Shown here piece after piece: positions 8,645-27,836 of a stretch of DNA of 64,000 nt. The stretch comes from Nitrospirota bacterium (GTDB taxonomy: Bacteria > Nitrospirota > Thermodesulfovibrionia > Thermodesulfovibrionales > JdFR-88): the NCBI GenBank assembly GCA_014874185.1, contig JACWAF010000026.1, positions 15,256 through 79,255 on the forward strand. The letters run 5' to 3'. Each line of letters opens with the position of its first letter. Positions within the stretch are counted from its first letter, which is position 1. The notes under the pieces were generated by a model. The model saw only the letters and a list, made by a program, of their open reading frames with translations. It did not search any database and was not told the DNA's origin. The translations under genes were made by a program, and so were the position numbers.

Positions 8645-8694
8645 TCCAAAAATTCTCTTTGCTTCTTTCTCTTATAAGAGAAAGAAGAATCTTT

Positions 8695-10059: not shown

Positions 10060-10155
10060 ATCTAAAATTAACCAATTGCGGGCCTGGCTGTCCAACTGAC
10101 CATTTAAGGCCCAATCTGATAATATATTCCAATCCGGATTCTAAAGGAGTTTTCT

Positions 10156-11268: not shown

Positions 11269-11308
11269 CCAGAATTTTCTCTTCGACCCCTCAATCCTGA
11301 AAAGAATC

Positions 11309-12013: not shown

Positions 12014-12080
12014 TCTAATCCCACGGGATTAGGGATTCAGCGCAAACTATAAGATATTATCAAGACATGTAAAGAACAAT

Positions 12081-12497: not shown

Positions 12498-12598
12498 ACA
12501 GTGTTGGCTTGCGACGGGCCTGAAACGAGGCCGGGGAAAAGCGCCAGCCAGAGCTTTGATTTGCAAAAAGTGCAGGGCAAAACAGCATTAGCAATCCT

Positions 12599-14146
12599 TC
12601 AGGAGATTACCGAGGAGTCCCTCTTCAGCTCGTCCAGGTTTATCCCGTACTTCTTTATCCTGTAGGCAAGCATGCGGGGGGTGATGCCCAGGGTTGCCGC
12701 GGCGCGGTGCTGAACCATGTTGTTCTCCTTGAGGGCCTTTATGATCCTTATCCGCTCAAGGTTCTCCACTTCGAGGCTTAGCGAGGAGTCATCAATGGGC
12801 GCCGTGTAAGCCGTTTGTGCACGCGAGAGGAAATTGTAAGGGAGGTCTTCCTTGTCCAGGAGGTCCTTTTCGGTCATTATCACGAGCCGTTCCACCGTGT
12901 TTGCAAGCTCCCTCACGTTGCCCGGCCAGGAATAGCTTATGAATTCCTGCATGGCCTCCGGCGTGAAATTCACCTGTTTGCTGTAAGCCTTGTTGAACTT
13001 GTTCACATAAAAATTGAGCAGGAGCGGGATGTCCTTCTTTCTGTCCCTCAATGCGGGCAGCACAATGGAGACCACGTTCAGACGCCAGTAGAGGTCGTTC
13101 CTGAAAGCCCCCCTCGCAACCTCTTCCTGTATCTTCCTGTTTGTGGCCGCGATTATGCGCACGTCGGACTTGATGGACTTTGAGGAGCCCACGCGCTCAA
13201 AGGTCTTGCCCTCCAGCACCCGCAATAACTTGGCCTGAAGGGCCAGGGGAAGCTCGCCTATCTCGTCCAGGAATATCGTGCCCCCGTCTGCCAGCTCGAA
13301 CCGCCCGATGCGGCGCTCCGTGGCCCCGGTGAAGGCACCCCTTTCGGAGCCGAACAGCTCGACTTCAAGCAGGTTCTCCGGCAGGGCCGCGCAGTTTATG
13401 GCGATATAGGGCCCCTTCGCCCTGGGGCTCTGGTAATGGATGGTCTTCGCTATAAGCTCCTTGCCGGTGCCGGATTCCCCCAGAAGCAGCACGGTCGTGT
13501 CCGTGCCTGCCACCTTCATCACGAACTTCAGGACGCTCTGGAACCTCTCGGACTCGCCTATCACGTTGGGGAGGCTGTAGTGCTGCTGAAGCTGGCGCTC
13601 GAGGCTCTGCCTCTGCTCCTCGGACTTGCGGTAATTCTCCCAGAGCTTCACGAACTGGGCTATCAGGGATGAGACTATCTGCAGCACCCGCAAGTCATCA
13701 TCAACGCCCCCCGCCTGGGCGGAGTAGATGCGGTCGGCGGTTATAACCCCCAGGATCTCATCTTTCAGCTCTATGGGGACGCAGAGGAAGGAGATGCCGT
13801 TTTTGTCCGGGCGGGAGCCGGTCTTGTTCAGGAACATCGGCTCCTCACCTATGTTGGGGATGAACATGGGCTGGCCGTTCCCGATAACTCGCCCCACTAT
13901 GCCCTCGCCGATCCTGTACTTGCCCCTTTTTATCTCTTCCCTGGTAAGGCCGTGGGCGGCCACAATCCGCAGCTCGCGCGAGACCGGGTCCAGCAGAAAG
14001 ACGCACCCCCGTTGCATCTCCAGGAGCCTGCTCAGGGCCTGCATCGCCGCCGTAAGGTTCTCCTCCAGGTCAAAAGAGGCGGTGAGCACCCGGCTTACTT
14101 CAAGGATTGCGGAGAGTTCGCGGTTTTTTCTCTCAAGGGATTCCAT
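12599..14146 (-). CDS. sigma-54-dependent transcriptional activator with N-terminal GAF domain (FhlA/HyfR/NifA-like architecture)
   Basis: The N-terminal ~170 aa are GAF-like. The AAA+ core has 'GESGTGKE' and '[13 protein letters not shown]' (GAFTGA loop). The C-terminal Fis-type HTH is '[21 protein letters not shown]'. Confidence 0.9.
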
Positions 14147-14183
14147 CTAGTCTCCGGGCCGTCCGGCCCAATTGGAATATCTG

Positions 14184-14201
14184 TCGGCAATCAATTGCCG
14201 A
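14184..14201. promoter_or_regulatory. 18-bp palindrome TCGGCAAT-CA-ATTGCCGA upstream of the GAF activator gene (candidate operator)
   Basis: Perfect 8-bp arms, 38-55 nt upstream of the start at 14146. The core GGCAA-N4-TTGCC is related to the palindrome at 14693-14719. Confidence 0.35.
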
Positions 14202-14343
14202 TAGTTTATTAAATCACACGGTTCCGCAAAAAAACAAGGCGGATGGCGTGCAAGGGCCGGTTAATTTTAAAAAGCAAAAAGAAAGGTCATGTTCTTTTTC
14301 TTGTAAGGGAAAGAACAAAAAGAACTTTTGTCTTTCAGGAATT

Positions 14344-14374
14344 GGAAAAAATGAAGGGGAGCTTTTGGCTCCCC
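14344..14374 (-). terminator. intrinsic terminator of the small lipoprotein gene
   Basis: The minus strand reads GGGGAGC-CAAAA-GCTCCCC followed by TTCATTTTTT, starting 45 nt after the stop codon. Confidence 0.65.
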
Positions 14375-14418
14375 GGAGTTGGTTCTAAAAAACAAGTCTA
14401 GAAAAGCGAAAAAAAAGC

Positions 14419-14583
14419 TTATTGCGCGGGCGCGTTGGTATCAGGCGCGTTGGCCGCAGGCGCGTTGGTCGTAGCCGGAGCCGTCGTCTCGGTCGGAGGC
14501 GGAGTCTGCTCTTTGGGCTTGCAGGCCGCTATTGAGAGTACCAGCATTGCGCTCAGTGCCACGGAAACGATGAGATATTTCAT
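14419..14583 (-). CDS. 54-aa lipoprotein, Pro/Thr/Ala/Asn-rich (below the 60-aa ORF-track cutoff)
   Basis: Hand translation gives MKYLIVSVALSAMLVLSIAACKPKEQTPPPTETTAPATTNAPAANAPDTNAPAQ*. It has a signal peptide with lipobox IAAC and an SD 'GGGGGG' 6-11 nt upstream. It has its own promoter and terminator. The 3' part is three 15-nt tandem repeats (xxNAP pentapeptides). Confidence 0.65.
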   Translation of the reverse strand: MKYLIVSVALSAMLVLSIAACKPKEQTPPPTETTAPATTNAPAANAPDTNAPAQ

Positions 14584-14630
14584 TTGTTTTCCCCCCTTTC
14601 TTGTTTTGATTTTACTAGTTCCCTTCTTTT

Positions 14631-14646
14631 TACAATAATCGTGCCA
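14631..14646 (-). promoter_or_regulatory. sigma-54 (-24/-12) promoter for the small lipoprotein gene
   Basis: The minus strand reads TGGCACG-ATTA-TTGTA against the consensus TGGCACG-N4-TTGCW (15/16; the -12 element is GT instead of GC). It lies about 48 nt upstream of the ATG at 14583. Confidence 0.5.
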
Positions 14647-14692
14647 TTATAGAATATTTTTAAAAATCCTTCAATAACAAATATTTCCCCCT

Positions 14693-14719
14693 CCGGGCAG
14701 GCAAAAATTGCCTTTCCGG
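14693..14719. promoter_or_regulatory. 27-bp symmetric element CCGG-gc-AGGCAA-AAA-TTGCCT-tt-CCGG (candidate enhancer/operator)
   Basis: It lies in the divergent spacer, about 50 bp upstream of the sigma-54 -24 element and about 100 bp upstream of the activator gene start at 14816. Confidence 0.4.
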
Positions 14720-14815
14720 TGCCCGTGCGATTATCATAAACGCGTCAAAACGACATATCATCGCGCTTAAAAGGCGGGGGGACATGCCATTTTGGCGCAA
14801 TTCTTTTCAGGAGGA

Positions 14816-16177
14816 ATGCCTTTGACCGCGGAACTGAACACGCTGATCGTTGCTGGCGGGGAATGGAAGAGGGAGTGGGAGAGGATCAGGCTGTACCTGA
14901 AGAGGAAGGGCATCAGGGTCTATTCCGTCCCCGGCCCGAAAGAGGCCCAGCGCCTCCTCAGGACCGAGCACATGAACATAGTGCTTTCGGAGTTCGACCT
15001 TAACGGGCAGGGCAGTCTCGCCTTCCTCCGGAGGCTGAAGGCCGTAAACCCCCAGGTGGAAGTGATATTCCTTTCGGGCAAGGTGCCCCTGTCGAAGGCC
15101 ATAGAGGCGATGAAGACCGGCGCGTACGACTTCTACGAATTCCCGGTGAACCCCAGGTTCCTGCTTGCGGTCATGGAGAAGGCCATTGAAAAGCAGGCCC
15201 TTTTCGTCGAGAAGGTGGAGCTTGAGCGCAAGGTGAAGGAGAGGTTCAATTTCGGCAAGATCATAGGCCGCAGCAAGGCCATGCAGCACGTTATAGAGAT
15301 AGTGGGCTCCGTGGCCCCCAAGAACGTCAACATCCTCCTCTCAGGCGAGACCGGCACGGGCAAGGAGATGATCGCAAACGCCATACACTATAACAGCGCC
15401 CGCGCATCGAGGCCGTTCGTAAAGGTGAACTGCGCGGCCTTCAACGAGGGGGTGCTGGAAAGCGAGCTCTTCGGGCATGAAAAAGGCGCCTTCACCGGCG
15501 CGATCTCGAAGAGGGTGGGCAGGTTCGAGCTTTCAAACGGGGGGACCATCTTCCTTGACGAGATAGGCGACGTCTCGCCGGGGACCCAGGTGAAGCTCCT
15601 GCGCGTCCTGCAGGAGAAGGAGTTCGAGCGCGTGGGCGGCAACGAGACCATAAAGGTGGACGTCCGGGTGATAGCGGCCACCAACCACGACCTCAAAAAG
15701 CTGATAGACCAGGGCAGGTTCCGCGACGACCTCTACTACAGGCTGAACGTTGTGCGCATAGAGCTGCCGCCGCTTCGCGAGCGCAGGGAGGACATCCCGC
15801 TCCTGGTCAGCTCCTTCATCAACAAGCTTAACGAGGAGAAGGCCTACGGCATAAAGGGCATCACCAAGGAGGCCATGCAGGTGCTCTTCTCCTACAGGTG
15901 GCCCGGGAACGTCCGCGAGCTTGAAAACGCCCTTGAGAGCGCGATGGCCCTTGCGGAAGCCGGCATGATTGAGGCAAAATACCTGCCGTCTTTTCTCCTC
16001 ATGCCGCAAACACAGGATGGTGAGCGCCTGAGCATACCGCGGGGCCTCACCCTCTATGAGATGGAAAAGGAGATCATCCGCCAGGCCCTGGAGAGGACCG
16101 GCGGCAATAAATCGCAGGCATCAAAATTGCTAGGTATCGGATTGCGCACATTGCAGAGAAAGGTAAAAGAACTTTAG
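14816..16177 (+). CDS. sigma-54-dependent NtrC-family activator with degenerate (non-phosphorylatable) receiver domain
   Basis: It has a receiver-like N-terminus and an AAA+ core with 'GETGTGKE' and 'ELFGHEKGAFTGA'. The HTH is 'QASKLLGIGLRTLQRKVKEL'. I prefer the ATG at 14816, which has an AGGAGG SD, to the TTG at 14792. Confidence 0.9.
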   Translation: MPLTAELNTLIVAGGEWKREWERIRLYLKRKGIRVYSVPGPKEAQRLLRTEHMNIVLSEFDLNGQGSLAFLRRLKAVNPQVEVIFLSGKVPLSKAIEAMKTGAYDFYEFPVNPRFLLAVMEKAIEKQALFVEKVELERKVKERFNFGKIIGRSKAMQHVIEIVGSVAPKNVNILLSGETGTGKEMIANAIHYNSARASRPFVKVNCAAFNEGVLESELFGHEKGAFTGAISKRVGRFELSNGGTIFLDEIGDVSPGTQVKLLRVLQEKEFERVGGNETIKVDVRVIAATNHDLKKLIDQGRFRDDLYYRLNVVRIELPPLRERREDIPLLVSSFINKLNEEKAYGIKGITKEAMQVLFSYRWPGNVRELENALESAMALAEAGMIEAKYLPSFLLMPQTQDGERLSIPRGLTLYEMEKEIIRQALERTGGNKSQASKLLGIGLRTLQRKVKEL

Positions 16178-16198
16178 ACAGGGTTTGAAGGGGAGGTC

Positions 16199-18190
16199 TT
16201 GGAATTTCCTTTTTATACGGCGGCCATTTGCGCCTTCGGGGCGGGGATAACAGGTTTCCCGTTCGCCCCTAAAAAGTTATCGGGATATCTGTACTTCGTT
16301 TATGCCCTGGGCTCGGCCCTATTCGGGGCGGCGGCCCTCCAGACGGTATACTCCGGTGTGCAGACCTCGTTGAGTTTTTCCCTGAGCGGGGTGCTTGACA
16401 TCGCGTTCAGGACCGGCGGGCTTTCGGCCTTTTTCGCCCTGGTGCTCTCCATCCTTGGGTTCGCGGTCTCGGTATATTCGGCCGGGTACATGCGGCATGA
16501 GGACAACGCCTCGTTCCAGGGGGTCTTTTACGGGCTCTTCCTGATGTCAATCTACGCGGTATTCTATGCGGGAAACATGCCCGCCTTCCTTGTCTCGTGG
16601 GAGACCATGTCCCTGGTCTCCTATTTCCTCGTGGTAAGCGATTCCCGAAACGATGATTCCCGAAAGGCGGGCCTTACATACGCCACAATGACGCACATAG
16701 GCACGGCATTCATCATTGCGGCCTTCATGATCGCCTATGCCGGTACGGGGACAATGGACTTTGAAAAGCTCAGGGTCCTCATCTCCACAAAACCCGTATC
16801 GCTCCGCTGGGCCATCTTCGTTCCGGCGCTGACAGGCTTCGGGATAAAGGCGGGCATAGTGCCCCTGCACATATGGCTTCCGAAGGCGCACCCGGCCGCG
16901 CCTTCCAATGTCTCGGCCCTCATGTCCGGAGTGATGATCAAGACGGGCATCTACGGCATAGTCCTGTTTTCAATTTACATACTGGGCGGGGCGGTCGCCT
17001 CCTGGGGGGTGGTCCTCCTGGTGCTCGGGGCCGTCTCCTCCGTATTGGGGGTGCTCTATGCCCTTATGGAACACGATATGAAAAGGCTCCTCGCCTACCA
17101 CAGTGTGGAGAACATAGGGATAATACTTCTGGGAGTGGGCGCGTCGATAATCTTTCAGTCTTACGGGCTCTTCACGCTTGCCGGACTGGCCCTTGCCGCG
17201 GCGCTTTACCACACGTTGAACCACGCCGTCTTCAAGGGGCTCCTGTTCATGGGGGCGGGTTCGGTCCTGCACGGCACACATACGAAGAACATAGAGGAGA
17301 TGGGCGGGCTTTTGAAGAGGATGCCCTGGACGGGCCTTTTCTTCCTGGTGGGTTCCATATCGATATGCGCGCTTCCACCCACGAACGGCTTCGTCAGCGA
17401 ATGGCTTACCTATCAGTCATTGGTGCTTGGGAGCACGGCGCCCGCCGTATACGCCAAGGTTTTGATGCTCCTGGCCGGGACGGCGCTGGCCCTCACCGGG
17501 GCGCTCGCCGCCGACTGCTTCATAAAGGCATTCGGGATATCGTTTCTGGGAATGCCAAGGAGCGCCGAGGCGTCAGGCGCCAAAGAGTCATCCCGAAGCA
17601 TGCTGGCCGGGATGGCCGTGCTTGCGGCGTGCTGCCTTGCGCTTGGAATATTTCCAAATTTTGTCCTTGCCACAATGGGCAGGCTCGAAGTGGGCAGCCT
17701 TCCCTACGCCAGGGCCGCCCTGTCCGGAAACTGGATGCTCTCCGTCCAGAACGGCTTTTCAACCCTCTCTCCAATAGGGATACTGGCCATAATGCTGTCC
17801 GGGCTCCTGGCCCTGCTTGTCTTCATAAAGGGGCTTGGCAGGAGGGAGGTCTCCTATGGGGACTCCTGGGACTGCGGCATCAGAAGGCTCACGCCGCGGA
17901 TGCAATACACCGCCACGGCTTTTACAAAACCTCTCAGGCAGATATTCAAGAGGATATACCTGCCTACAAAAGAGGTAAAGATAATCTACAGGCTGCGGCC
18001 CTTCTTCGCGGAAAACATCACTTATAATTCGGGGATAACGCCCTTTTTCGAGAAATACGGATACGGCCCCGCGGTCTCCACGGTGCACAAGGCCGCACTC
18101 AGGATCAGAAAGCTCCAGTCCGGCAGCCTTCATCTGTACCTGGGCTATATACTGCTAACCCTCCTGGTCCTTCTTTTTGCGTGGGGGTAG
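16199..18190 (+). CDS. HyfB/HycC-like antiporter-type membrane subunit (NuoL/Mrp family)
   Basis: A 663-aa polytopic protein with 'WLPKAHPAAPSNVSALMSGVMIKTGIYG', the hallmark of NuoL/M/N-type proton-pumping subunits. Its length matches HyfB. Confidence 0.8.
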   Translation: MEFPFYTAAICAFGAGITGFPFAPKKLSGYLYFVYALGSALFGAAALQTVYSGVQTSLSFSLSGVLDIAFRTGGLSAFFALVLSILGFAVSVYSAGYMRHEDNASFQGVFYGLFLMSIYAVFYAGNMPAFLVSWETMSLVSYFLVVSDSRNDDSRKAGLTYATMTHIGTAFIIAAFMIAYAGTGTMDFEKLRVLISTKPVSLRWAIFVPALTGFGIKAGIVPLHIWLPKAHPAAPSNVSALMSGVMIKTGIYGIVLFSIYILGGAVASWGVVLLVLGAVSSVLGVLYALMEHDMKRLLAYHSVENIGIILLGVGASIIFQSYGLFTLAGLALAAALYHTLNHAVFKGLLFMGAGSVLHGTHTKNIEEMGGLLKRMPWTGLFFLVGSISICALPPTNGFVSEWLTYQSLVLGSTAPAVYAKVLMLLAGTALALTGALAADCFIKAFGISFLGMPRSAEASGAKESSRSMLAGMAVLAACCLALGIFPNFVLATMGRLEVGSLPYARAALSGNWMLSVQNGFSTLSPIGILAIMLSGLLALLVFIKGLGRREVSYGDSWDCGIRRLTPRMQYTATAFTKPLRQIFKRIYLPTKEVKIIYRLRPFFAENITYNSGITPFFEKYGYGPAVSTVHKAALRIRKLQSGSLHLYLGYILLTLLVLLFAWG

Positions 18191-19109
18191 GGTGGAGAGC
18201 CTGCAATTTCTGCTGATAATCTTCTTCTCCCCGCTCCTGCAGGGCTTCATCAAGAAAATAAAAGCCCTTTCGCAGGGGAGGGTGGGGCCTGGCATCCTTC
18301 AGCCCTACTACGACCTGATAAGGCTGTTCAAAAAAGACATGGTCATCTCGGAGACGGCCTCGTGGATATTCCATGCCGCGCCTTTCGTGACCTTCGTCTC
18401 CGTGCTTGCCGCATCCGTCATAACACCCGTTTTCAGCCTGCAGGGGGGCATCTTCAAGGCGGGGGACATAATCGCCATAATCTACACGCTGGCCCTAGGC
18501 CGTTTCTTCATGGCCCTGGCCGGGCTGGACGCGGGCACCGGGTTTGGGGGCGAGGGGTCCAGCCGCGAGGCCACCCTGGCCATCATAGTGGAGCCCGTGC
18601 TCATAATGGCCATATTCACCGCGGCCATAGCCGGGGGCTCCACAAGCCTCTCCATACTGAGCCGCTCGGCCAACATCTTCCGCTCCCCGGCCCACGTGCT
18701 GGCCTTCGCCGCTTTCTACGTGGCCCTGATAGCGGAGACCGGCAGGGTCCCGGTGGACAACCCAGACACCCACCTCGAATTAACCATGATCCACGAGGGG
18801 ATGGTCCTTGAATACTCGGGGCCGTACCTGGCCCTGATGGAATGGGCGCATTTCATGAAGCAGATGCTCCTGTTCACGATAGCCCTGGATCTCTTCTTCC
18901 CGTTCGGGATGCAGGGCGGCAGCACCGCCCTGGGGCTTGCCCCCGCTCCGGGGATTTACCTGATAAAGGTTTTCATAATGGGCGTGGCGGTCGCTTTAAC
19001 TGAAAGCACGCGGGCCAAGATGAGGTTCTTCCAGCTGCCGTCGCTTCTTGGGGGGGCCTTCGTGCTGGCCCTGCTGTCCGTGATAACCCTGATAATGCTG
19101 GGCGGATAG
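18177..19109 (+). CDS. HycD/HyfC-like membrane subunit (NuoH family)
   Basis: 'PLLQGFIKKIKALSQGRVGPGILQPYYDLIRLFKKD' matches the NuoH/HycD N-terminal signature. An alternative GTG start is at 18192. Confidence 0.8.
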   Translation: MRGGRVESLQFLLIIFFSPLLQGFIKKIKALSQGRVGPGILQPYYDLIRLFKKDMVISETASWIFHAAPFVTFVSVLAASVITPVFSLQGGIFKAGDIIAIIYTLALGRFFMALAGLDAGTGFGGEGSSREATLAIIVEPVLIMAIFTAAIAGGSTSLSILSRSANIFRSPAHVLAFAAFYVALIAETGRVPVDNPDTHLELTMIHEGMVLEYSGPYLALMEWAHFMKQMLLFTIALDLFFPFGMQGGSTALGLAPAPGIYLIKVFIMGVAVALTESTRAKMRFFQLPSLLGGAFVLALLSVITLIMLGG

Positions 19110-19113
19110 GAAC

Positions 19114-19776
19114 ATGGCAAGAAACTGGCTTCAGGCCTATTCAGTGCTGGACTTCATAGCTGTAGGGATGCTCCTGTCCGTTATAGCCGTAAGCTCGCAG
19201 AAGAGGCTGGAGTCCTGTGTGAGGACGTATGTGCTCAATTCCTGGCTGCTGGCGGCATTTGTAACCGTGAGCGCCTTCTACATGGGGATGCCGCACCTTT
19301 ACATCGCGGCGGCCCTCACGGTGCTCTCCAAGTGCTTCCTGATACCGTACTTCCTCAGGAAGGTGCTCCGGCAGCTGAGGGTGACGCATGACGTGGAGCC
19401 ATATATAAGCGCGCCGCTTTCGCTCCTGGCCGCCTTCGCCCTTGTAGTTGTGGTGTTTTCGTTTGTCTCGCAGGGCGTCTTCGTGACCGGCGTGACCAGG
19501 AACGCGCTGAAGATAGCCATATCGATAATCCTCATCAGCCTCTTCGTCATGATGACCAGGAAGAAGGCGATAACCCAGGTGATAGGGCTTCTAATAATGG
19601 AAAACGGGCTTTTCCTGGCCGGGTTTTCACTCACCTACGGGATGCCGATCATAGCGGAGCTGGGCGTGGTCTTCGACATGCTGATGGGCGTGATAATACT
19701 GGGCCTTTTTTTAACACAAATAAAAAAGGCATTCGTGAGCGTGGACCTGGACAAGCTCACCACATTGAAGGGATAG
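19114..19776 (+). CDS. HyfE-like small membrane subunit (NuoK-related)
   Basis: 220 aa with about 7 TM segments. Its size and position between the HyfC-like and HyfF-like genes match the E. coli hyf operon. Confidence 0.6.
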   Translation: MARNWLQAYSVLDFIAVGMLLSVIAVSSQKRLESCVRTYVLNSWLLAAFVTVSAFYMGMPHLYIAAALTVLSKCFLIPYFLRKVLRQLRVTHDVEPYISAPLSLLAAFALVVVVFSFVSQGVFVTGVTRNALKIAISIILISLFVMMTRKKAITQVIGLLIMENGLFLAGFSLTYGMPIIAELGVVFDMLMGVIILGLFLTQIKKAFVSVDLDKLTTLKG

Positions 19777-21225
19777 ATGCTATACGGGGTACTGATACCG
19801 CTTGCGGCCGCTCTCATCCTGATGGCCTCGAAGAGGCTGAAGCCGGCCGAATACATTACCGTGCTTGCCGCCGGGGCAGGGGCCCTCTGGGCGGGCACGA
19901 TTGCCTTCTACGCGCTTTACGGATATGTATTCGACGGGCTTGGCGGCCTCTTCAGGGCCGACGCGCTCTCGGCCTATATCCTCCTTATCATTGCCGGTCT
20001 GTCATTCGCAACGGCGGTCTATTCGGTTGGCTACATGAGGGGGGAACTCTCCAGGCTTGCCATAACTGAGAAGGCTCTCAAATTCTATTACGTGCTCTTC
20101 AACCTGTTCGTCTTTACCATGATGCTCATCCCCATTTCGAACAACCTGGCCTTTTTGTGGATAGCCATTGAGGCCACCACGCTTGTGAGCGCCCTGCTGG
20201 TGGGCATCTATAAAAGGCAGAACTCGATAGAGGCGGCCTGGAAGTACATCATCCTCTGCACGGTGGGCATCACGTTTGCCCTCCTGGGCACGTTCGTCAT
20301 CTACTACGCCTCCGCCGAGGCCGGCACGGGCACCCTGGACTGGACGGAGCTTAGCCGGATGGCCCACGGCCTGAACCCGGCCACTGTGAGGCTGGCCTTC
20401 ATACTGATAATAGTGGGGTACGGCACAAAGGCCGGGCTGGCCCCGGTACACAACTGGCTCCCGGACGCCCACAGCGAGGCCCCCACGCCGGTGAGCGCGC
20501 TCCTTTCGGGCATCCTCCTGAACTGCGCCTTCTACGGCGTGATGAGGTTCGCGGCCATCGCGGACAAGTCCTGCGGGCACGCCTTCGTGCAGGAGATAAT
20601 GGTATTCTTCGGGCTGGCTTCGATAATCATCCCCGCCATATTCATCCTTATTCAGTCCAATGCCAAGAGGCTCCTCGCTTACAGCAGCATAGAGCACATG
20701 GGGATAATCGCCCTGGCCTTCGGCATAGGCGGGGTCTGGGGCATCTACGCCGCCCTCCTGCACATCCTGAACCACGCCCTCGGGAAGCCCCTCATGTTCT
20801 TCGTCATGGGCAGGGTGCACTCGCAATATCATTCCGTTGAGATGGGCGAGGTGAGAGGCGTGCTCGGGGTGAACCCCCTGATTGCGGTGATCGGCTTTGC
20901 CGGGGCGATGTGCCTTGCCGGGATGCCGCCATTCAATATATTCCTCAGCGAATTTTTAATGATTAAGACCCTTGCCGCGGGCAGCTACTGGGGCATTATG
21001 GCCACGTTCCTCGCGGCAAGCGGGTTTGTGTTTTACGGGTTTTTAAAGGGTTTTGGCGGGATGTTCCTTGGCAAGCCCTCGCTGGAGCACGGAGAGCCGG
21101 TTTCCTTCAGGGCCTCAGATACGGTGCTGGTAGTGATGGGGATGGGCATCCTGCTCCTGGGGCTTTCCATCCCGGGGCCGCTGAATAAACTGATCAACCT
21201 CTCCATAGGGGCGCTCGGGGTCTAG
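19777..21225 (+). CDS. HyfF-like antiporter-type membrane subunit (NuoM/N family)
   Basis: Contains 'GTKAGLAPVHNWLPDAHSEAPTPVSALLSGILLNCAFYG', the NuoM/N signature. Confidence 0.8.
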   Translation: MLYGVLIPLAAALILMASKRLKPAEYITVLAAGAGALWAGTIAFYALYGYVFDGLGGLFRADALSAYILLIIAGLSFATAVYSVGYMRGELSRLAITEKALKFYYVLFNLFVFTMMLIPISNNLAFLWIAIEATTLVSALLVGIYKRQNSIEAAWKYIILCTVGITFALLGTFVIYYASAEAGTGTLDWTELSRMAHGLNPATVRLAFILIIVGYGTKAGLAPVHNWLPDAHSEAPTPVSALLSGILLNCAFYGVMRFAAIADKSCGHAFVQEIMVFFGLASIIIPAIFILIQSNAKRLLAYSSIEHMGIIALAFGIGGVWGIYAALLHILNHALGKPLMFFVMGRVHSQYHSVEMGEVRGVLGVNPLIAVIGFAGAMCLAGMPPFNIFLSEFLMIKTLAAGSYWGIMATFLAASGFVFYGFLKGFGGMFLGKPSLEHGEPVSFRASDTVLVVMGMGILLLGLSIPGPLNKLINLSIGALGV

Positions 21226-21226
21226 C

Positions 21227-22756
21227 ATGAATCCGGCAAACGAGATACACAAGAAACTGACCGAGGGGGAATTCCGCGAAGAGGCGGCAATGCTATTTGA
21301 TAATGGCAACCCGCTCATGCTCATGTTCTGCGTGGACGAGCGGGAGATTGGCGGAGGGTTCACCGTCTATGCCGTCTTCTCTTTGAAGGGAGAAGACCTG
21401 TTCATGGTCCTGAGCTTCCCCGTAACCGAAAAATCCGGGCGGTTTGCGTATAAGAGCATCACCCCCCTGGTGCCCGCCGCCCACTGGTACGAGCGTGAGA
21501 TAAGGGACATGTTCGGGATAGAGCCGCTGGGGCACCCAGACCCCAGGCCGCTGGTCCTTCACGGCATGTATCCGGACAACCTCCATCCCTTGAGAAGGGA
21601 CGTGACCGTGGAACAGATAAGAAGCCGCATTGACCTCGAAAGAGAGGACAATTACAATTTCGTGAAGGTAGAGGGCGAGGGGGTCTGCGAGATACCGGTG
21701 GGCCCCGTGCACGCGGGCATCATAGAGCCCGGCCATTTCCGTTTCAGCGCCGTGGGCGAAAGCATTTACTTCCTGGACCCAAGGCTGTTCTATACCCATA
21801 AAGGGGTGGAAAAACACTTCGAGCGGATTGGCTTCGAGCGGGGCGCAGCGCTTGCCGAAAGGGTGTCCGGCTGTTCCTCCTTCGCGCACTCCACGGCATA
21901 TTGCCTCGCGGTGGAAAGGATGGCCGGAGTGGAAATACCCGAAAAGGCCAAAGCCATCCGGACGCTCCTTCTGGAACTGGAGCGGATTTACAACCATATC
22001 GGCGACATAGGCAATATGTGCGCCGGGACGGGCTTCGCCGTTGGCTACCAGAGCGGCGCGCTGATAAAAGAGAAGCTCATGAGGCTGAACGCAAGCCTGA
22101 CCGGAAGCAGATATCTGAGGGGGGTGAATGCTCTTGGGGGCGTCAGCAGGGACGTGCTTGAGAAAGCGGACGAGATACTCTTCACCCTGGACGAGGTCAC
22201 TACGGAGTACAAGGATTTCATGGAGCTTCTGACCGGTTCGGTCTCCCATATGGAAAGACTGGACGGGGCGGGCGTGCTCTCGATGGACATAGCGCGCAAG
22301 CTTGGCGCCACGGGCATAGCCGCCCGCGGTTCGGGCATAAACCAGGACATGCGCACCGTGCACAAACACCTGATGTATGATTCAGTTGTGTTCGAGGCCC
22401 ATTCACGGGGGAAAGGCGACGTGCTGGCGCGGATGATGGTGAGGGCGGACGAGGCCGAATGCTCGTTCTCGATAATAGAGTCCATCCTCAAAGAGCCCTA
22501 TCCCGGCCCCCTCGCAGCCGGTATAAAAGGATTCCCGGCGCTCTCCTCCGCATTGGGCTATGTGGAGGGGCCCAGGGGGTCTGTCTTCTACTTTGTGAAG
22601 ACGAACGACAAGGGGGAACCGCTGAGGGTCAAGGTGCGTTCGGCATCGTTTTGCAACTGGCCTTTGATGCCCTTTGCGGTGAGGGGAAACATCATTCCGG
22701 ACTTCCCGCTTGTCAACAAGAGTTTTAATCTTTCATATTCCGGCTCGGACATGTAA
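21227..22756 (+). CDS. HycE/HyfG-like fused NuoC-NuoD-type subunit lacking all four [NiFe]-ligand cysteines
   Basis: Contains 'GPVHAGIIEPGHFRF' and 'RLFYTHKGVEK', typical of group-4 large subunits. The ligand motifs read RVSGCSSFAH (instead of RxCGxCxxxH), and the C-terminus reads NLSYSGSDM* (instead of DPCxxCxxR). Confidence 0.8.
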   Translation: MNPANEIHKKLTEGEFREEAAMLFDNGNPLMLMFCVDEREIGGGFTVYAVFSLKGEDLFMVLSFPVTEKSGRFAYKSITPLVPAAHWYEREIRDMFGIEPLGHPDPRPLVLHGMYPDNLHPLRRDVTVEQIRSRIDLEREDNYNFVKVEGEGVCEIPVGPVHAGIIEPGHFRFSAVGESIYFLDPRLFYTHKGVEKHFERIGFERGAALAERVSGCSSFAHSTAYCLAVERMAGVEIPEKAKAIRTLLLELERIYNHIGDIGNMCAGTGFAVGYQSGALIKEKLMRLNASLTGSRYLRGVNALGGVSRDVLEKADEILFTLDEVTTEYKDFMELLTGSVSHMERLDGAGVLSMDIARKLGATGIAARGSGINQDMRTVHKHLMYDSVVFEAHSRGKGDVLARMMVRADEAECSFSIIESILKEPYPGPLAAGIKGFPALSSALGYVEGPRGSVFYFVKTNDKGEPLRVKVRSASFCNWPLMPFAVRGNIIPDFPLVNKSFNLSYSGSDM

Positions 22757-22766
22757 ATTATTATTT

Positions 22767-23288
22767 ATGTTCACGCGAATTTTTAATAATATTATAGGGA
22801 AGAAAAAGGCCCTCCGGGCCGGTGAGCTTAAGCTTACAAGGTCGGACTTGGAGTTTGCCGAAGGGATGAGGAGGAAGATGCACAGCGTGTTTGGCCGCTC
22901 GGCAAGGATAAGGCAGGTGGACGCCGGCTCTTGCAATGCCTGCGAATGGGAGTGCACCGCCATGGGGAACCCCGTGTACGATTCGCAGAGGTTCGGGGTG
23001 GATTTCGTGGCCTCCCCCAGGCACGCCGACATCATCCTCGTTACGGGGCCGGTCTCGCTGGGTATGGTACTGGCCCTCAAAAAGACATATCTCGCCACAC
23101 CGGGGCCGAAGCTGGTCATCGCCTGCGGCGACTGCTCGAAAGACGGCGGCATTTACCGGGGCAGTTACGCGGTCACGGACGGGGCCGCGGAGATAGTGCC
23201 GGTGGACAGCTACATCCCGGGGTGTCCGCCCACGCCGCGCGACATACTCGCGGGAATAAGCAGGACCATTGACGCATTCATCAAATAA
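22767..23288 (+). CDS. HycG/HyfI-like small subunit (NuoB family), [4Fe-4S] cysteines retained
   Basis: Contains 'GSCNACEWE', 'SPRHADIILVTG', 'IACGDC' and 'YIPGCPPTP'. I prefer the ATG at 22767, just after the upstream stop, to 22710. Confidence 0.85.
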   Translation: MFTRIFNNIIGKKKALRAGELKLTRSDLEFAEGMRRKMHSVFGRSARIRQVDAGSCNACEWECTAMGNPVYDSQRFGVDFVASPRHADIILVTGPVSLGMVLALKKTYLATPGPKLVIACGDCSKDGGIYRGSYAVTDGAAEIVPVDSYIPGCPPTPRDILAGISRTIDAFIK

Positions 23289-23301
23289 AAGGAGGCTATT
23301 G

Positions 23302-24669
23302 ATGTCAGAGGCCGCTAGAGAGTACGAAGAACCTCCGAGCCAACAGATTCAAGTCCTGCCGCGCGAGGACGCGCACGGGGGAGACGACCTCTTCCGCAAG
23401 GTGGATCTCGCGCGGAAATTCTGGCCAGAGGCAACCCAGTCCGAATGGAACGACCCCCGATGGCAGATGGCAAACAGGCTCCGCACACTGGAACCGCTCT
23501 CCACTCTACTGGACCTGAAGCCCTATCAGAAACCGCGCTACAAAAGACTTATAGACGCGTTCCACTACTCGATCACCCCCTATTATCTCTCTCTGGCCAA
23601 CTGGTCTGACCCGGAAGACCCCATCAGAAAGCAGTGCGTCCCGGACCTCCGGGAGCTGGAATTCCAAATGGTGGGCGACAACGACCCGCTGGAAGAGGAA
23701 GATGACATGCAGGTGCAGGGGCTTGTGCACCGCTACCCGGACCGGGTGCTGGTAATAGCCACCAACGCCTGCAGCATGTATTGCAGGCATTGCACCAGGA
23801 AAAGGATCTGGCACGAGGGCGAGTCCTCAAGAAGTAAAAAAGATTTCCAGGCGATGCTCCATTATATCCGGGTCACTCCGGAGGTGCGAGAGGTGATCGT
23901 CTCCGGCGGAGACCCTCTTACAATGAACATGGAGCTTCTGGACTGGCTCCTTGGCGAACTCCGCAGGATATCCCATGTTGAGGTGCTCCGGATAGGCACG
24001 AGGCTTCCGGTGGTGCTCCCCATGGGCGTAACGGACGATATGGTGAAAATGCTCAGGGGCCACCGCCCGCTCTGGCTGAACACCCAGTTCAATCACCCGG
24101 CCGAGATAACCCCCGAGTCGCGGGAGGCCTGCGACCGCATACTCTCGGCGGGGATTCCGGTCAGCAACCAGTCGGTGCTCCTCCGCGGCATAAACGACTC
24201 ACCCGAAATAATGAAAGATCTCTGCCACGGGCTTCAGAGGATCATGGTTCGGCCCTATTACCTTTTCCAGTGCGACCCGGTGCGCGGAGTGGAGCATTTC
24301 CGCACCAGCATCTGGAAGGGGATAGAGATAATAGAGATGATGCGCGGCTACACGGGCGGGCTTACAATCCCCAATTTCGTGGTGGACGCGCCCGGCGGAG
24401 GCGGGAAGATACCGCTCCAGCCGTTCTATCTGCTCTCGGTCACCGACAAGGAGATTCTCCTCAGGAATTACGAGGGGATGATAATAAAGTACTACAACCC
24501 GGATGAGACCCATATGGAACGGGGCAGGAAATCGAACGGCGCCGGCAGGGACGGCGGCACGGCCCAGCTCCTGAAAGGCCAGGGGAAGGCCCTTGTGCCG
24601 GAAGAGACCCAGCGCTACAAGAGGAGAAAGCAGAAGGACCTGCTATTCAAGCTGGGCGATATGAAATGA
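23302..24669 (+). CDS. KamA-family radical-SAM amino acid 2,3-aminomutase (lysine 2,3-aminomutase-like; substrate not determinable by eye)
   Basis: Contains 'NACSMYCRHCTRKR' (CxxxCxxC), 'VIVSGGDPL' and 'RPYYLFQCDPVRGVEHF'. The SD AAGGAGG lies 7 nt upstream of the ATG at 23302. Confidence 0.85.
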   Translation: MSEAAREYEEPPSQQIQVLPREDAHGGDDLFRKVDLARKFWPEATQSEWNDPRWQMANRLRTLEPLSTLLDLKPYQKPRYKRLIDAFHYSITPYYLSLANWSDPEDPIRKQCVPDLRELEFQMVGDNDPLEEEDDMQVQGLVHRYPDRVLVIATNACSMYCRHCTRKRIWHEGESSRSKKDFQAMLHYIRVTPEVREVIVSGGDPLTMNMELLDWLLGELRRISHVEVLRIGTRLPVVLPMGVTDDMVKMLRGHRPLWLNTQFNHPAEITPESREACDRILSAGIPVSNQSVLLRGINDSPEIMKDLCHGLQRIMVRPYYLFQCDPVRGVEHFRTSIWKGIEIIEMMRGYTGGLTIPNFVVDAPGGGGKIPLQPFYLLSVTDKEILLRNYEGMIIKYYNPDETHMERGRKSNGAGRDGGTAQLLKGQGKALVPEETQRYKRRKQKDLLFKLGDMK

Positions 24670-25733
24670 AGATCGCCCTCACTTACGACCTCCGGCGCGA
24701 GTACATGGAGATGGGCTACTCCGAGGAGGAGACCGCCGAGTTCGACAGCGAAGAGACCGTCGAGCATCTTAAGGCCGCTGTGCGCGAACTGGGGCACGAG
24801 GCCGTCCCGGCAGGCAATATCTACGAGCTTACCCGCCGTCTTGCCGGCGGAGAGACCTGGGACCTGGTCTTCAATATCTGCGAGGGGCTCCGGGGCAGGA
24901 ACCGCGAGTCCCAGGCGCCCGCCCTCCTTGAGGCCTATAATATCCCTTACACGTTCAGCGACCCCCTCACGCTTTCTTTATGCCTGGACAAGGCCATGGC
25001 GAAGCGGGTGGTGCGGGACTCCGGCGTGCCCACACCGGATTTCTTCGTCATAAATTCTGTCCCGGAGATAGATAAATCAGAACTCCCAAAAGGGATGAAA
25101 TTCCCGCTTTTCGTAAAGCCCGTCTCCGAGGGGACGGGGAAGGGCGTTACCCCGGCCTCGATAGTGAACGACCCGAAAGAGCTTAAGAACCAGGCAAGGA
25201 GGCTGCTCTTGAAATATTCGCAGCCCGTCCTGGTGGAGGGCTATCTTCCGGGAGATGAGTTCACGGTGGGGATACTTGGCACCGGACCCGAGGCCCGTGT
25301 GATAGGCGCGTTGGAGGTGAAACTCCTCAAGAGCGCCGAGCCCCTGGTCTACTCCTACATGAACAAGGAACTCTGCGAAGAGCGCGTGGAGTACACGCTT
25401 GTAAAAAGTAAAAAGCTCCTCAGGGAGGCCTCGGACGTGGCCCTTCGCGCATACCAAGCCCTCCAGTGCAGGGACGCGGGCAGGGCGGACCTGAAGGCCG
25501 GCCCGGACGGAAGGCTTCAATTCATTGAGATGAACCCGCTTGCGGGGCTTCATCCCACGCACTCCGACCTGCCGGTCCTATGCTCCAGGGCCGGGATGAG
25601 CTACAGGGAGCTTGTCTCTTCCATAATAGAATCCGCATCCAAAAGAAAGGCCTCTTCAAACAGCAGGACAGCCTGCAATACAGACCAGTCCTTATTCCGG
25701 AGGCCGCCCCCGGGCAGGCCAGCCGGCCTTTGA
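24666..25733 (+). CDS. ATP-grasp ligase, D-alanine--D-alanine ligase-like family
   Basis: Ddl-like layout: 'DKAMAKRVVRDSGVPTPDF', 'FPLFVKPVSEGTGKGV', 'YLPGDEFTVGILG', 'LQFIEMNPLAGL'. Its ATGA start overlaps the kamA-like stop. Confidence 0.75.
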   Translation: MKIALTYDLRREYMEMGYSEEETAEFDSEETVEHLKAAVRELGHEAVPAGNIYELTRRLAGGETWDLVFNICEGLRGRNRESQAPALLEAYNIPYTFSDPLTLSLCLDKAMAKRVVRDSGVPTPDFFVINSVPEIDKSELPKGMKFPLFVKPVSEGTGKGVTPASIVNDPKELKNQARRLLLKYSQPVLVEGYLPGDEFTVGILGTGPEARVIGALEVKLLKSAEPLVYSYMNKELCEERVEYTLVKSKKLLREASDVALRAYQALQCRDAGRADLKAGPDGRLQFIEMNPLAGLHPTHSDLPVLCSRAGMSYRELVSSIIESASKRKASSNSRTACNTDQSLFRRPPPGRPAGL

Positions 25734-26707
25734 TGAAAATAGCCGTTGTATATAACGAGCCCGATAAGGGGAGTCTCGACTCGATGGATATCCTGGACGA
25801 GCTGTCTACCGTAACCGGCGGATTGGACGGGCTCGGGCTGGATTACGAGGTCTTCCCCGTTGCCGCGGTCCCCGGCTTCTGCGCGGGGCTCCTCTCAGGT
25901 CTGGAAAAATTCTCTCCGGGGCTTGTCTTCAACCTGGTTGAGGGGGTGGGCGGGAATTACAGGCTTCACCCCGCGATGGCCGCCCTGTTCGAGATGGCGG
26001 GCTACCCGCACACCGGTTCCCCTTATGACGTGCTCCTTGCCACCACGGACAAAACGATGGCCAAGGGGATCATGAAGGCGCACGGCATAAAAACCCCTGA
26101 CTGGGAAATCTATAAAGGCGGCCCTTTCAGGCCACAGGTAAATACGCCCTGCATCGTGAAGCCCTCGTTCGAGGACGCCTCGGTGGGGATAGACGACAGC
26201 AGTCTGATAATCGATGCCGATGATCTGCTGGAAAAGGCCGGGAGCATCTACCGGAAATTTCACAGGCGGCCGGTGCTGATAGAGAGCTTCATCCCCGGCA
26301 GAGAGTTCAATGTCTCTCTCCTCGAAAAGCCGGACGGGGTGGAGGTCTTCCCCCTGGCCGAGATATTATTCACCAACTGGCCCGACAAAAAGCCAAAAAT
26401 AGTGAACTACAACGCCAAATGGGTGGAGGACTCTTTTGAATATCAGAACACACCCAGGACATTCGCGCCCGCTCCGGCCCCCTTTGGAGAGATAAGGGAA
26501 ACGGCGCTCAGGTGCTGGGACATATTTAACCTGCGGGGGTATGCGCGGGTGGACATGAGACTTGACGCGGAGGGCACCCCCTACGTTATCGAGGTAAACG
26601 CGAACCCCTGCATAGCGCCGTGGTCGGGCTATCTGGCCGCGGCCAAAGAGGCCGGCTGCGGGCCCCGGGATGTGATGAAGCGTATAATAGAGAGCGCCCT
26701 CTTATGA
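25733..26707 (+). CDS. second ATP-grasp ligase, D-alanine--D-alanine ligase-like family
   Basis: Contains 'DKTMAKGIMKAHGIKTPDW', 'PCIVKPSFEDASVGI', 'FIPGREFNVSLL' and 'PYVIEVNANPCI'. Its start overlaps the upstream stop (TGATG at 25731-25735). Confidence 0.75.
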   Translation: MKIAVVYNEPDKGSLDSMDILDELSTVTGGLDGLGLDYEVFPVAAVPGFCAGLLSGLEKFSPGLVFNLVEGVGGNYRLHPAMAALFEMAGYPHTGSPYDVLLATTDKTMAKGIMKAHGIKTPDWEIYKGGPFRPQVNTPCIVKPSFEDASVGIDDSSLIIDADDLLEKAGSIYRKFHRRPVLIESFIPGREFNVSLLEKPDGVEVFPLAEILFTNWPDKKPKIVNYNAKWVEDSFEYQNTPRTFAPAPAPFGEIRETALRCWDIFNLRGYARVDMRLDAEGTPYVIEVNANPCIAPWSGYLAAAKEAGCGPRDVMKRIIESALL

Positions 26708-27261
26708 GGATATCGGGCATCCGGAAGAAAATGGAGGCGTTGAAAGGCGTGCGCCTGCGCGATAACGTCAGGGTTGAAGACAAAAGGGCCGTGGCGGATA
26801 TCCTCTCGGCATCCGGGCTCTTCTATCCATATGAAATCGATGTGGCGATTGAATTGCTGGACGACTTTCTTGATAAAGGCAGGCAAAGCGAGTACCGGTT
26901 CCTCTTCGCGGATATCGGGGGCGGGGCGGCAGGGTACGCGTGCTTCGGGCCAATCTCGATGTCTCCGGGCAGGTTCGATCTTTACTGGATAGCCGTAGAC
27001 AAGAAGCATCAGAGGAAAGGGATCGGGGGGCTGCTCCTCTCCGGGGCTGAAAAGAAAATGGCGGCAGAGGGGGCCGGATACATCTATGTAGAGACCTCTT
27101 CAAGAGAGGTTTACCTGCCCACCCGGCGCTTCTATGAAAAGCACGGGTATCGTCAGGTCGCCTGCGTGCCGGAGTACTTTGGCGACGGCGACCACAAGAT
27201 CATCTACATGAACTCCATTAAAAAGTCTCTTGACACCTTTTTGGGAAGTTATAAAATTTAA
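26704..27261 (+). CDS. GNAT-family N-acetyltransferase
   Basis: 'LYWIAVDKKHQRKGIGGLLLSGAEK' is the acetyl-CoA binding Q/RxxGxG/A motif. Its ATGA start overlaps the upstream stop. Confidence 0.8.
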   Translation: MRISGIRKKMEALKGVRLRDNVRVEDKRAVADILSASGLFYPYEIDVAIELLDDFLDKGRQSEYRFLFADIGGGAAGYACFGPISMSPGRFDLYWIAVDKKHQRKGIGGLLLSGAEKKMAAEGAGYIYVETSSREVYLPTRRFYEKHGYRQVACVPEYFGDGDHKIIYMNSIKKSLDTFLGSYKI

Positions 27262-27263
27262 CT

Positions 27264-27836
27264 ATGAAAAAGATACTGCTTCTTCTCATGGCTCTGGCGC
27301 TTTTGGCATCCTGCGCTCCGGTCCTGAACAAGGGGCTTATGAGAGAAGGGACCAGGAACCCTTCCTTCCAGAGCCTGCTCGATAACCCCGGCATGTACAA
27401 GGGGAAACTCTTTATCATGGGCGGCATTATAGCAAGCACCAAAATAACGCCTGAGGGCTCGCTCATCGAGGCCCTCTATGTGCCGGTGGACAGTTCCGGA
27501 GAGCTGAAGGACAAATACGGCGAGCAGGGCAGGTTCCTGGCGCTCCTCCCGAAGGACAAGGGCATGCTGGATCCGATGATTTACAAGAAGAACCGCGCGA
27601 TAACCCTTGCGGGCACTTACATGGGCACCCGGACAACCAAAATAGACACCACCGACGTCGCCCTTCCCTTCTTCAATATAGTGCAGATATATCTCTGGAG
27701 GGAAGAGGCCTACTATGCGTATCCCTATTCCTATTATCCGTATTATGGCTATCCCTACTATCCGTACTACTATAACTATCCCTTCTGGTGGGAAAGGCCC
27801 TATAACAGGTTCTACGGGCCTCCGTACTGGTATTAG
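27264..27836 (+). CDS. Slp-family outer-membrane lipoprotein with Tyr/Pro-rich C-terminal tail
   Basis: It has a signal peptide with lipobox LLASC. 'KLFIMGGIIASTKITPEGSLIEALYVPVDSSGEL...GRFLALL...DPMIYKKNRAITLAG' fits the Slp family. The tail reads 'YYAYPYSYYPYYGYPYYPYYYNYPFWWERPYNRFYGPPYWY'. Confidence 0.7.
   Translation: MKKILLLLMALALLASCAPVLNKGLMREGTRNPSFQSLLDNPGMYKGKLFIMGGIIASTKITPEGSLIEALYVPVDSSGELKDKYGEQGRFLALLPKDKGMLDPMIYKKNRAITLAGTYMGTRTTKIDTTDVALPFFNIVQIYLWREEAYYAYPYSYYPYYGYPYYPYYYNYPFWWERPYNRFYGPPYWY

Follow-up and report, generated by a model that had tools for sequence, protein, structure and literature searches.

A 64,000-nt stretch of the genome of a Nitrospirota bacterium (assembly GCA_014874185.1, contig JACWAF010000026.1; the whole stretch is called the window in what follows) carries, at 14816-27836, a string of 12 closely packed open reading frames (ORFs), all on the plus strand, in which the genes of a sigma-54 activator, a hydrogenase-like Ehr complex, an aminomutase-ligase cassette and an Slp lipoprotein succeed one another. 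The first gene (14816-16177) encodes an NtrC-family activator with REC, AAA+ and HTH_8 domains (Pfam, NCBIfam) and an atypical receiver. The Ehr genes are ehrA (16199-18190; NuoL/HyfB-like antiporter-type membrane subunit, Pfam Proton_antipo_M, 662 bits against a cut-off of 667 with the NCBIfam model of hydrogenase 4 subunit B), ehrB (18177-19109; NuoH/HyfC-like membrane subunit, Pfam NADHdh, 2.7e-44), ehrC (19114-19776; HyfE-like membrane subunit, NCBIfam hydrogenase 4 membrane subunit at 4.6e-26, under the cut-off), ehrD (19777-21225; NuoM/N/HyfF-like antiporter-type subunit, Proton_antipo_M, 1.1e-58), ehrL (21227-22756; fused NuoC-NuoD/HycE-like large subunit, Complex1_30kDa and Complex1_49kDa) and ehrS (22767-23288; NuoB/HycG-like small subunit, Oxidored_q6). 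The cassette consists of kamA (23302-24669; KamA-family radical S-adenosylmethionine (SAM) aminomutase), two genes for ATP-grasp ligases resembling D-alanine-D-alanine ligase (Ddl) (ligase 1, 24666-25733, Pfam Dala_Dala_lig_C, best PDB Ddl match 1e-25; ligase 2, 25733-26707, Pfam and PDB Ddl, 6e-18) and a GNAT acetyltransferase gene (26704-27261; Pfam Acetyltransf_1, PDB 2R7H at 4e-31). The gene for an Slp-family outer-membrane lipoprotein (27264-27836; Pfam PF03843, 3.2e-31) completes the string.

The gaps between consecutive genes are +21, -14, +4, 0 and +1 nt for genes 1 to 6, and +10, +13, -4, -1, -4 and +2 nt for genes 6 to 12. Shine-Dalgarno sequences are found at the tight junctions inside genes 2-11; there is none ahead of slp. 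Terminator-like hits within the string number 22, against 20.5 +/- 4.3 expected from shuffled sequence. An earlier description of this DNA, made from its letters and translations alone (the sequence-only reading), had listed the genes and their common strand, placed every junction between -14 and +21 nt and seen no hairpin terminator inside the string; the domain searches, the coordinates and the shuffled expectation bear it out on each of these points. A scan of the 12-30 kb portion of the window and of loci L081-L083 against Rfam (E<=0.1) found no riboswitch or leader (compared loci are designated by L numbers).

The large subunit sets the complex apart from a hydrogenase. In an alignment with E. 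coli HycE (7Z0S_E, 2.3e-89) all four NiFe-ligating cysteines of EhrL are replaced: RVCGICGFAH and DPCYSCTD of HycE read RVSGCSSFAH and NLSYSGSD, and its relatives have the same replacement. EhrS, aligned with HycG (7Z0S_G, 5.3e-34), retains the CNAC, GdC and GCPP motifs and with them its [4Fe-4S] cysteines. A group 4/NuoD-like large subunit that has lost both CxxC pairs, in company with NuoB-like cluster cysteines and with NuoH-like and antiporter-like membrane subunits, is what defines an Ehr complex; the four cysteines that define a group 4 [NiFe]-hydrogenase (Hyf, Ech, formate hydrogenlyase) are missing. No gene for a Fer4 (NuoI/HycF) protein lies between the large and small subunit genes in this Nitrospirota group, which distinguishes the subfamily from the many other cysteine-less relatives that have one there. 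The HycE and HycG alignments and the neighbourhood comparison thus agree with what had been claimed for the complex: cysteine-less, devoid of a ferredoxin-type subunit, its NuoB cluster kept.

Ehr (energy-converting, or Ech-hydrogenase-related) complexes are widespread, occurring in Nitrospirota, Acidobacteriota, Verrucomicrobiota, ammonia-oxidising archaea and candidate phyla. Relatives of EhrL number in the thousands, the closest (59-73% identical) coming from metagenome-assembled genomes of Nitrospirota/Thermodesulfovibrionales. One Nitrospirota locus, L003, holds two complete six-gene Ehr clusters in tandem (4961-12091 and 12391-19826), the second with 32-54% identity to the window proteins. 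The closest solved structures to EhrL and EhrS are those of HycE and HycG in E. coli formate hydrogenlyase (7Z0S), and the subunit order is that of hydrogenase 4, hyfB-C-E-F-G-I. The locus differs from both E. coli systems in the replaced cysteines, in having no HycF/HyfH ferredoxin subunit, and in the absence from the string of HycB, formate dehydrogenase and maturation genes. It also resembles, in a comparison made by description, the Ehr complex of Geobacter sulfurreducens (GSU0739-45), in which the NiFe CxxC pairs are likewise missing from the group-4-like large and small subunits and NuoL-, NuoH-, HyfE- and NuoM/N-like membrane subunits are present; what differs here is the NtrC-type activator that precedes the Ehr genes and the beta-lysine cassette that runs on from them without a break. 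The Geobacter genome paper makes no mention of the neighbours of Ehr. The literature treats the function of Ehr as unknown (PMC7894505, PMC6349859, PMC10432482), and the partner that has been proposed is formate dehydrogenase, not an aminomutase (PMC6349859, PMC7894505). We found no paper that combines Ehr with an aminomutase, in keeping with the earlier statement that the link is undescribed.

The first enzyme of the cassette is assigned with some confidence. KamA passes TIGR00238 (315 bits against a cut-off of 199), falls just short of the AblA equivalog TIGR03820 (498.2 against 525.4), and aligns without gaps to the lysine 2,3-aminomutase of Clostridium subterminale (2A5H, 8e-126). Its C157/C161/C164, R166, D325, D362 and K369 correspond to C125/129/132, R134, D293, D330 and K337 of 2A5H, so that the CxxxCxxC radical-SAM motif, the pyridoxal phosphate lysine and the Asp pair of a lysine 2,3-aminomutase are all in place. 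The Asp293/Asp330 pair (2A5H numbering) is the one that binds the epsilon-amino group of lysine. The lysine-type Asp pair and the order of scores (AblA, then glutamate, then arginine aminomutase) also favour lysine over the glutamate and arginine alternatives, which were considered and rejected. By these sequence signatures, KamA most likely makes beta-lysine.

The remaining enzymes are less readily placed. Both ligases match only Ddl among PDB structures, and in the loci examined orthologues of ligase 1 always come after KamA. The best NCBIfam match of the GNAT protein is RimI, under its cut-off, and it has no match to the AblB model; 2R7H, its best structural match, is an uncharacterised structural-genomics protein. 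AblA and AblB make up the route to N-epsilon-acetyl-beta-lysine, a salt- or ammonia-induced osmolyte (PMC3543383, PMC12776343). What the cassette has in common with that pathway is a KamA-family lysine 2,3-aminomutase that carries the Asp pair for lysine binding, with a GNAT protein encoded after it. It departs from the two-gene unit in which an AblB-type acetyltransferase adjoins AblA: two ligase genes intervene, and in relatives the GNAT is fused to ligase 2. The fused protein (534-552 amino acids) is found in one subclade, at L088/L089 (15055-16687), L095 (11084-12715), L097 (14967-16571) and L098 (15156-16814), and its existence as a single polypeptide in four lineages implies that ligase 2 and the GNAT act together. 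A further lead is the Ngg/AsnO route to the dipeptide osmolyte N-acetylglutaminylglutamine amide, in which GNAT and ATP-grasp peptide ligase domains reside in one protein that makes an N-acetylated small peptide solute; the fusion in L088, L095, L097 and L098 is like it in architecture, and the ligases here are instead Ddl-type, with beta-lysine as the predicted amino-acid substrate. By analogy with N-acetyl-beta-lysine and with the GNAT and ATP-grasp enzyme of N-acetylglutaminylglutamine amide, the cassette product is most likely a compatible-solute-like small molecule, and probably an N-acylated beta-lysine (pseudo)peptide. No paper was found that describes the four-gene cassette, or that joins beta-lysine with an ATP-grasp enzyme and an osmolyte.

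The control of these genes turns on an element that the sequence-only reading passed over. A sigma-54 type -24/-12 sequence, AGGCATCAAAATTGCT, lies on the plus strand at 16116-16131, within the final 60 nt of the activator gene and with ehrA 68 nt downstream; only 4 sites of this quality exist on the plus strand of the window. It has the -24 GG and -12 GC at the correct spacing before the first gene of the Ehr block, and it adjoins the gene for an AAA+ activator whose translation contains the GAFTGA motif: together, the hallmarks of a sigma-54 operon. The element was present in all five activator-Ehr loci scanned: the window and, at the same codons (Ala-Ser-Lys/Arg-Leu-Leu of the helix-turn-helix), L001, L088/89, L095 and L097. 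Codons GCA, TTG and CTA, which supply the consensus bases, are the same in each of the four orthologues tested; variation is seen at the spacer Ser codon and at nearly all of the adjoining degenerate codons. Over the whole activator gene, the codon is identical at only 23% of conserved residues that have 4-fold or higher degeneracy (Leu 6/33, Ala 4/15). Locus L083, in which an orthologous activator is followed directly by KamA, has no element at the helix-turn-helix codons; it has instead a strong intergenic one, TGGCATGAATATTGCT, 30 nt before the KamA ATG. The conservation of these codons, and the absence of the element from the coding sequence where the promoter is intergenic, support a functional sigma-54 promoter, as far as sequence can speak for one. 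Nowhere else was a sigma-54 site seen before KamA (window, L001, L088/89, L084, L081, L082), and there is none before ehrA in the scanned Ehr-only loci or in L096, which lacks the activator.

The activator itself (orthologues in L001, L088 and L083 are 66-77% identical) is unlikely to be a conventional response regulator. Compared with NtrC, and by way of indication only, its receiver domain (14816-15200) has Glu at the phospho-acceptor position in the window, and neither the acidic DD pair nor the conserved Lys is present in it or in any orthologue, so that the acidic pocket, Asp and Lys of a phosphorylation-controlled receiver are not assembled. An Asp-to-Glu change at the phospho-acceptor position is activating in NtrC. 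No histidine kinase gene adjoins the activator gene, and judging from its receiver the protein may be phosphorylation-independent.

The best sigma-54 match anywhere in the window (1 mismatch) is on the minus strand, at 14646-14631, before the gene of a small lipoprotein; it was rejected as the main promoter, its -12 half not being conserved in L084/L081, where the overlapping TATAAT is. Ehr-only loci, outside or inside the fused clade, also have sigma-54 activators of other kinds upstream: L092 has one without a REC domain, accompanied by four small ORFs and a TGGCATGTCAGTTGCA site (2146-4793), and L085 has one of the PAS type (3238-4587). Sigma-54 control may be general in this Ehr subfamily.

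At the other end of the string, slp appears to have a promoter of its own. A candidate sigma-70 promoter, TTGACA-16-TAAAAT (11/12 match), lies on the plus strand at 27230-27257, its -10 box ending 7 nt before the slp ATG; the same architecture (TTGAC[C/T], 16-nt spacer, TATAAT, 6-7 nt, ATG) recurs in L084, L088 and L097. The sequence-only reading, which missed this conserved promoter, had put the next good one at 27915, and the match at 27230-27257 is equally good. The Slp assignment rests on the Pfam domain and on a lipobox, LLASC, within MKKILLLLMALALLASC of the translation. Relative to the cassette, slp follows directly in L084 and L096, lies three genes off in L088/L097, and does not appear after it in L001, L095 or L094. 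Since it has a conserved promoter of its own, and several relatives have it away from the cassette or not at all, slp is most likely a separate, leaderless transcription unit. The TPR gene after slp likewise has a near-consensus sigma-70 promoter, at 27915, and no Shine-Dalgarno sequence; the probable start of its ORF is 27954 rather than the TTG at 27903. With promoters that end 7-10 nt before the ATG in both genes, the layout suggests that leaderless mRNAs are used in this organism.

The string had been taken for a single transcription unit of 12 genes. That the Ehr genes and the KamA cassette are co-transcribed is very likely, given the 13-nt junction between them, its strong Shine-Dalgarno sequence and the tight or overlapping junctions in six other lineages; the activator gene and slp are probably separate. 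The string is accordingly best described, on the promoter-like elements, as a probable composite of three transcription units: the activator gene, a ten-gene operon (16199-27261) and slp.

How widely the Ehr genes and the cassette keep company was examined from the Ehr side, with one genome per species, EhrL relatives as anchors, 10-kb flanks and the best 80 loci kept, onto which the window proteins were mapped; closer metagenomic relatives were reached by exact-protein context look-ups. (A metagenome scan with KamA alone gave only four loci.) The six-gene Ehr block is conserved almost everywhere among the best 80 loci, most of which are cysteine-less Ehr types. Ehr followed by KamA, the ligases and GNAT is found at a single one of the 80, L001 (Nitrospirae DBS2-1.bin166), and is absent from the other 79, including the Nitrospirota loci L002-L007, where Ehr stands alone. 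The look-ups added the fused loci L088/89, L095, L096, L097 and L098, and the Ehr-only loci L085, L087, L090, L091 and L092. Ehr-to-KamA adjacency is thus verified in seven lineages (window, L001, L088/89, L095, L096, L097, L098), which answers the question, raised at the outset, whether the modules adjoin each other only in this genome. Five further contigs probably carry the fusion, since matches to EhrL and to ATP-grasp ligase come from contigs of identical length; both of the two such coincidences that were checked are fusions. L096 (GCA_021813405.1) is a metagenome-assembled genome with a Nitrospirota-like fused locus that one source labels Actinomycetota, which may be an error of binning or labelling.

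The junction is kept down to about 62-67% EhrL identity. Around it, the downstream flanks differ among the fused loci, and L096 also has a different left side, without the activator (L095 is cut upstream). In a neighbour-joining tree of EhrL all cassette-linked sequences fall in one clade together with L085; the grouping of this Ehr-only locus with the window and P0002 (86% bootstrap) argues that its state is a secondary loss. The cassette, for its part, occurs without adjacent Ehr genes in L081, L083, L084, L093 and L094. L084 and L081 (KamA 79-80% identical) have SecD-SecF-RecJ before the cassette and neither Ehr nor activator; after it come Slp, TPR and the two oligopeptide ABC ATPases that the window also has. 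The SecDF-RecJ genes of L084 have no counterpart in the 64-kb window, which places the breakpoint at the left end of the cassette. In L083 the activator (66% identity) leads directly into KamA, and in L093 (Syntrophales) and L094 (a metagenome-assembled genome labelled Nitrospinae) KamA, ligase 1 and ligase 2 stand in that order without Ehr, with GNAT also present in L094. The KamA tree places L083 as sister to the clade that the fused loci form, and L084/L081 within that clade. The simplest reading of this distribution would be a conserved site, with the activator and the Ehr block as present-or-absent modules upstream of an autonomous cassette.

The left border of that site is marked by a small lipoprotein gene. 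Its product, 54 amino acids long and unannotated, is encoded on the minus strand (14583-14419), has the lipobox SIAAC, begins MKYLIVSVALSAMLVLSIAAC... and has a Pro/Thr/Ala/Asn-rich tail; the gene has a sigma-70-like TTGAAG-17-TATAAT at 14674-14646 and a terminator-like hairpin at 14374-14356. A homologue precedes the activator gene in L089/L097/L098 (57-61 amino acids), ehrA in activator-less L096, and KamA in L084/L081: of all genes to the left of the cassette it is the most regularly kept, with or without activator and Ehr genes. In the related contigs L084 (9640-9980) and L081 (4300-4640) a stretch of about 230 nt that precedes the stand-alone KamA is conserved in blocks, downstream of a TTGTAA-17-TATAAC promoter-like site; it may be a regulatory leader (L081 has no Rfam match). 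Beyond the small lipoprotein gene and divergent from the string, at 12599-14146 on the minus strand, lies a gene for a GAF-domain, NifA-like sigma-54 activator (Pfam GAF, Sigma54_activat and HTH_8; NCBIfam NifA 512 bits, under the 529 cut-off), and an activator of this GAF type occupies the equivalent position in L001, L088/89, L097 and L098.

These facts allow an outline of how the locus may work, one to which we incline somewhat: a modular locus of three units, in which Ehr was joined to the cassette once and is tied to it by co-regulation. The activator would be made from its own promoter. The sigma-54 promoter in the last 60 nt of its gene would drive a ten-gene operon encoding, in six genes, a NiFe-free Ehr complex with one [4Fe-4S] cluster, two antiporter-like subunits and no NuoI-type subunit, and in the other four the cassette. 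Lysine 2,3-aminomutase would form beta-lysine, which the two ligases and the GNAT would probably convert to an N-acylated beta-lysine (pseudo)peptide, and slp would be transcribed apart, from its leaderless sigma-70 promoter. The joining of Ehr to the cassette would have been one event, in one Nitrospirota lineage, with the junction kept while both flanks were rearranged, and both modules would be needed under the same signal, probably ionic, osmotic or ammonia/pH stress. That shared expression is of value to the cell is suggested by the survival of the junction, in seven lineages or more, through changes to the downstream flank (and in L096 to the upstream one also). That the relation is one of co-regulation rather than obligate partnership fits better with its confinement to one subclade, with the separability of the modules nearby, and with the absence of KamA from most Ehr loci; the link between Ehr and the cassette is most likely neither physical nor one of electron transfer. 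The functional linkage first proposed for the two modules consequently survives in a weaker form: the adjacency is conserved, in one EhrL subclade and between modules that can part. Gene content, the lost and retained cofactor ligands, gene order with its distribution over the trees, and the conservation of the promoter-like elements are read directly from the sequences; the working of the promoters, the product of the cassette, the inducing signal and any pumping of ions by Ehr are inferred from them.

Several observations weigh against this outline. The sigma-54 element overlaps the coding sequence of a conserved helix-turn-helix motif (A-S-K-L-L), and the argument from synonymous sites is built on four or five related sequences. 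A search of the window upstream of the element found no activator-binding palindrome; palindromes at -53 and -110 occur in L083 only, and none is shared with the window. Read-through from the activator gene, across a gap of 21 nt, is possible, in which case genes 1-11 could be one transcript. Bootstrap support for a monophyletic clade of cassette-linked EhrL sequences is only 44%. The assignment of a product is weak, with a GNAT that has no AblB match, ATP-grasp proteins that match Ddl only, and no paper on the cassette; and the stress signal is pure conjecture.

The most durable alternative is that the fusion is neutral: the Ehr block landed once between promoter and cassette (or the reverse) and has been inherited since, the two modules serving unrelated purposes. 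The distribution lends itself to this account, since all verified fusions are in one EhrL subclade and may amount to one independent event, Ehr-only L085 groups with the window (86% bootstrap), cassette-only L084/L081 are nested among the fused KamA sequences, and the activator and Ehr genes come and go as blocks in the interval from the small lipoprotein gene to KamA. Yet a junction that has outlasted divergence to about 62-67% EhrL identity despite reshuffled flanks, and that persists in L096 without the activator, is more than unrelated neighbours would predict. We regard a neutral fusion as possible but less likely than the outline above; from the gene order, the joining looks like one event that was retained.

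Somewhat less probable is the first of two hypotheses put forward in the sequence-only reading, that the string is a dedicated osmostress module in which ions would be extruded by the antiporter-like subunits of Ehr, a compatible solute would be supplied by the cassette, and Slp would serve as the stress lipoprotein of the same unit. KamA retains the lysine-binding Asp pair, Ehr has two Mrp/Nuo antiporter-like subunits, and Slp recurs near the cassette in five loci; acetylation of beta-lysine yields a salt- or ammonia-induced osmolyte in methanogens (PMC3543383, citing Pfluger 2003; PMC12776343). Against this, the GNAT is not AblB-like and two ligases are foreign to the N-acetyl-beta-lysine pathway; slp has a promoter to itself and in several loci stands apart from the cassette or is missing; and no salt-related gene, riboswitch or regulator was found. 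A looser version, that Ehr in this clade shares a response with the synthesis of a beta-lysine-derived solute, as a stress ion pump or (less likely) as a gradient-driven reductase for the aminomutase, we hold only tentatively and rate a little lower again.

It is also conceivable, though unlikely, that the cassette serves modification of the envelope, with a beta-lysine peptide attached to an envelope component and the 54-amino-acid lipoprotein and Slp related to the process. To the left of the cassette, no neighbour is more constant than the small lipoprotein gene (window, L084, L081, L096, L089, L097, L098); to the right, Slp is often present; and the ligases resemble Ddl, a peptidoglycan enzyme. 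The resemblance to Ddl is at the level of the family only, however; the cassette has no transferase, flippase or exporter, and the stand-alone cassettes L093 and L094 lack both lipoproteins. Least probable of all is the second of the original hypotheses, that the ion gradient lets Ehr supply low-potential electrons, by way of its single NuoB-type cluster, straight to the radical-SAM cluster of the aminomutase. In its favour, kamA immediately follows the Ehr genes in seven lineages, and the subfamily keeps the NuoB cluster without a NuoI/HycF subunit, but lysine 2,3-aminomutase uses SAM catalytically, regenerating it at each turnover and requiring reduction for activation only (this is established enzymology), the cassette is encoded without adjacent Ehr genes in L081, L083, L084, L093 and L094, nearly all Ehr loci lack KamA, and no consistent extension or docking feature marks the linked KamA proteins (455-529 amino acids, against 457-481 for unlinked ones).

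Two other regions of the window depart from its base composition of about 0.57 GC. The segment at 1460-8174 is of low GC (0.37-0.39 between 2 and 6 kb) and holds genes for four GT2/WbsX glycosyltransferases, a GT9 glycosyltransferase, an FkbM methyltransferase and a Wzx-like flippase, with a tRNA-Leu at 8245-8329; this is probably a horizontally acquired surface-polysaccharide island. A second drop, to 0.425, occupies the right end (62001-64000).

What the locus means for Ehr is twofold. The locus is a lineage-specific variant assembled from known parts, and a link that is lineage-specific and between separable modules cannot explain the function of Ehr in general. At the same time, a conserved operon linking one Ehr subfamily with a defined biosynthetic cassette and with a sigma-54 activator offers a concrete handle on these complexes. 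The widespread cassette of KamA, two ATP-grasp ligases and GNAT, found in Nitrospirota, in Syntrophales and in the genome labelled Nitrospinae, points to an uncharacterised metabolite derived from beta-lysine. If Ehr in this clade does share a response with the synthesis of that metabolite, this would be the first condition-linked function of an Ehr complex, and the sigma-54 promoter would provide an inducible means of studying it.

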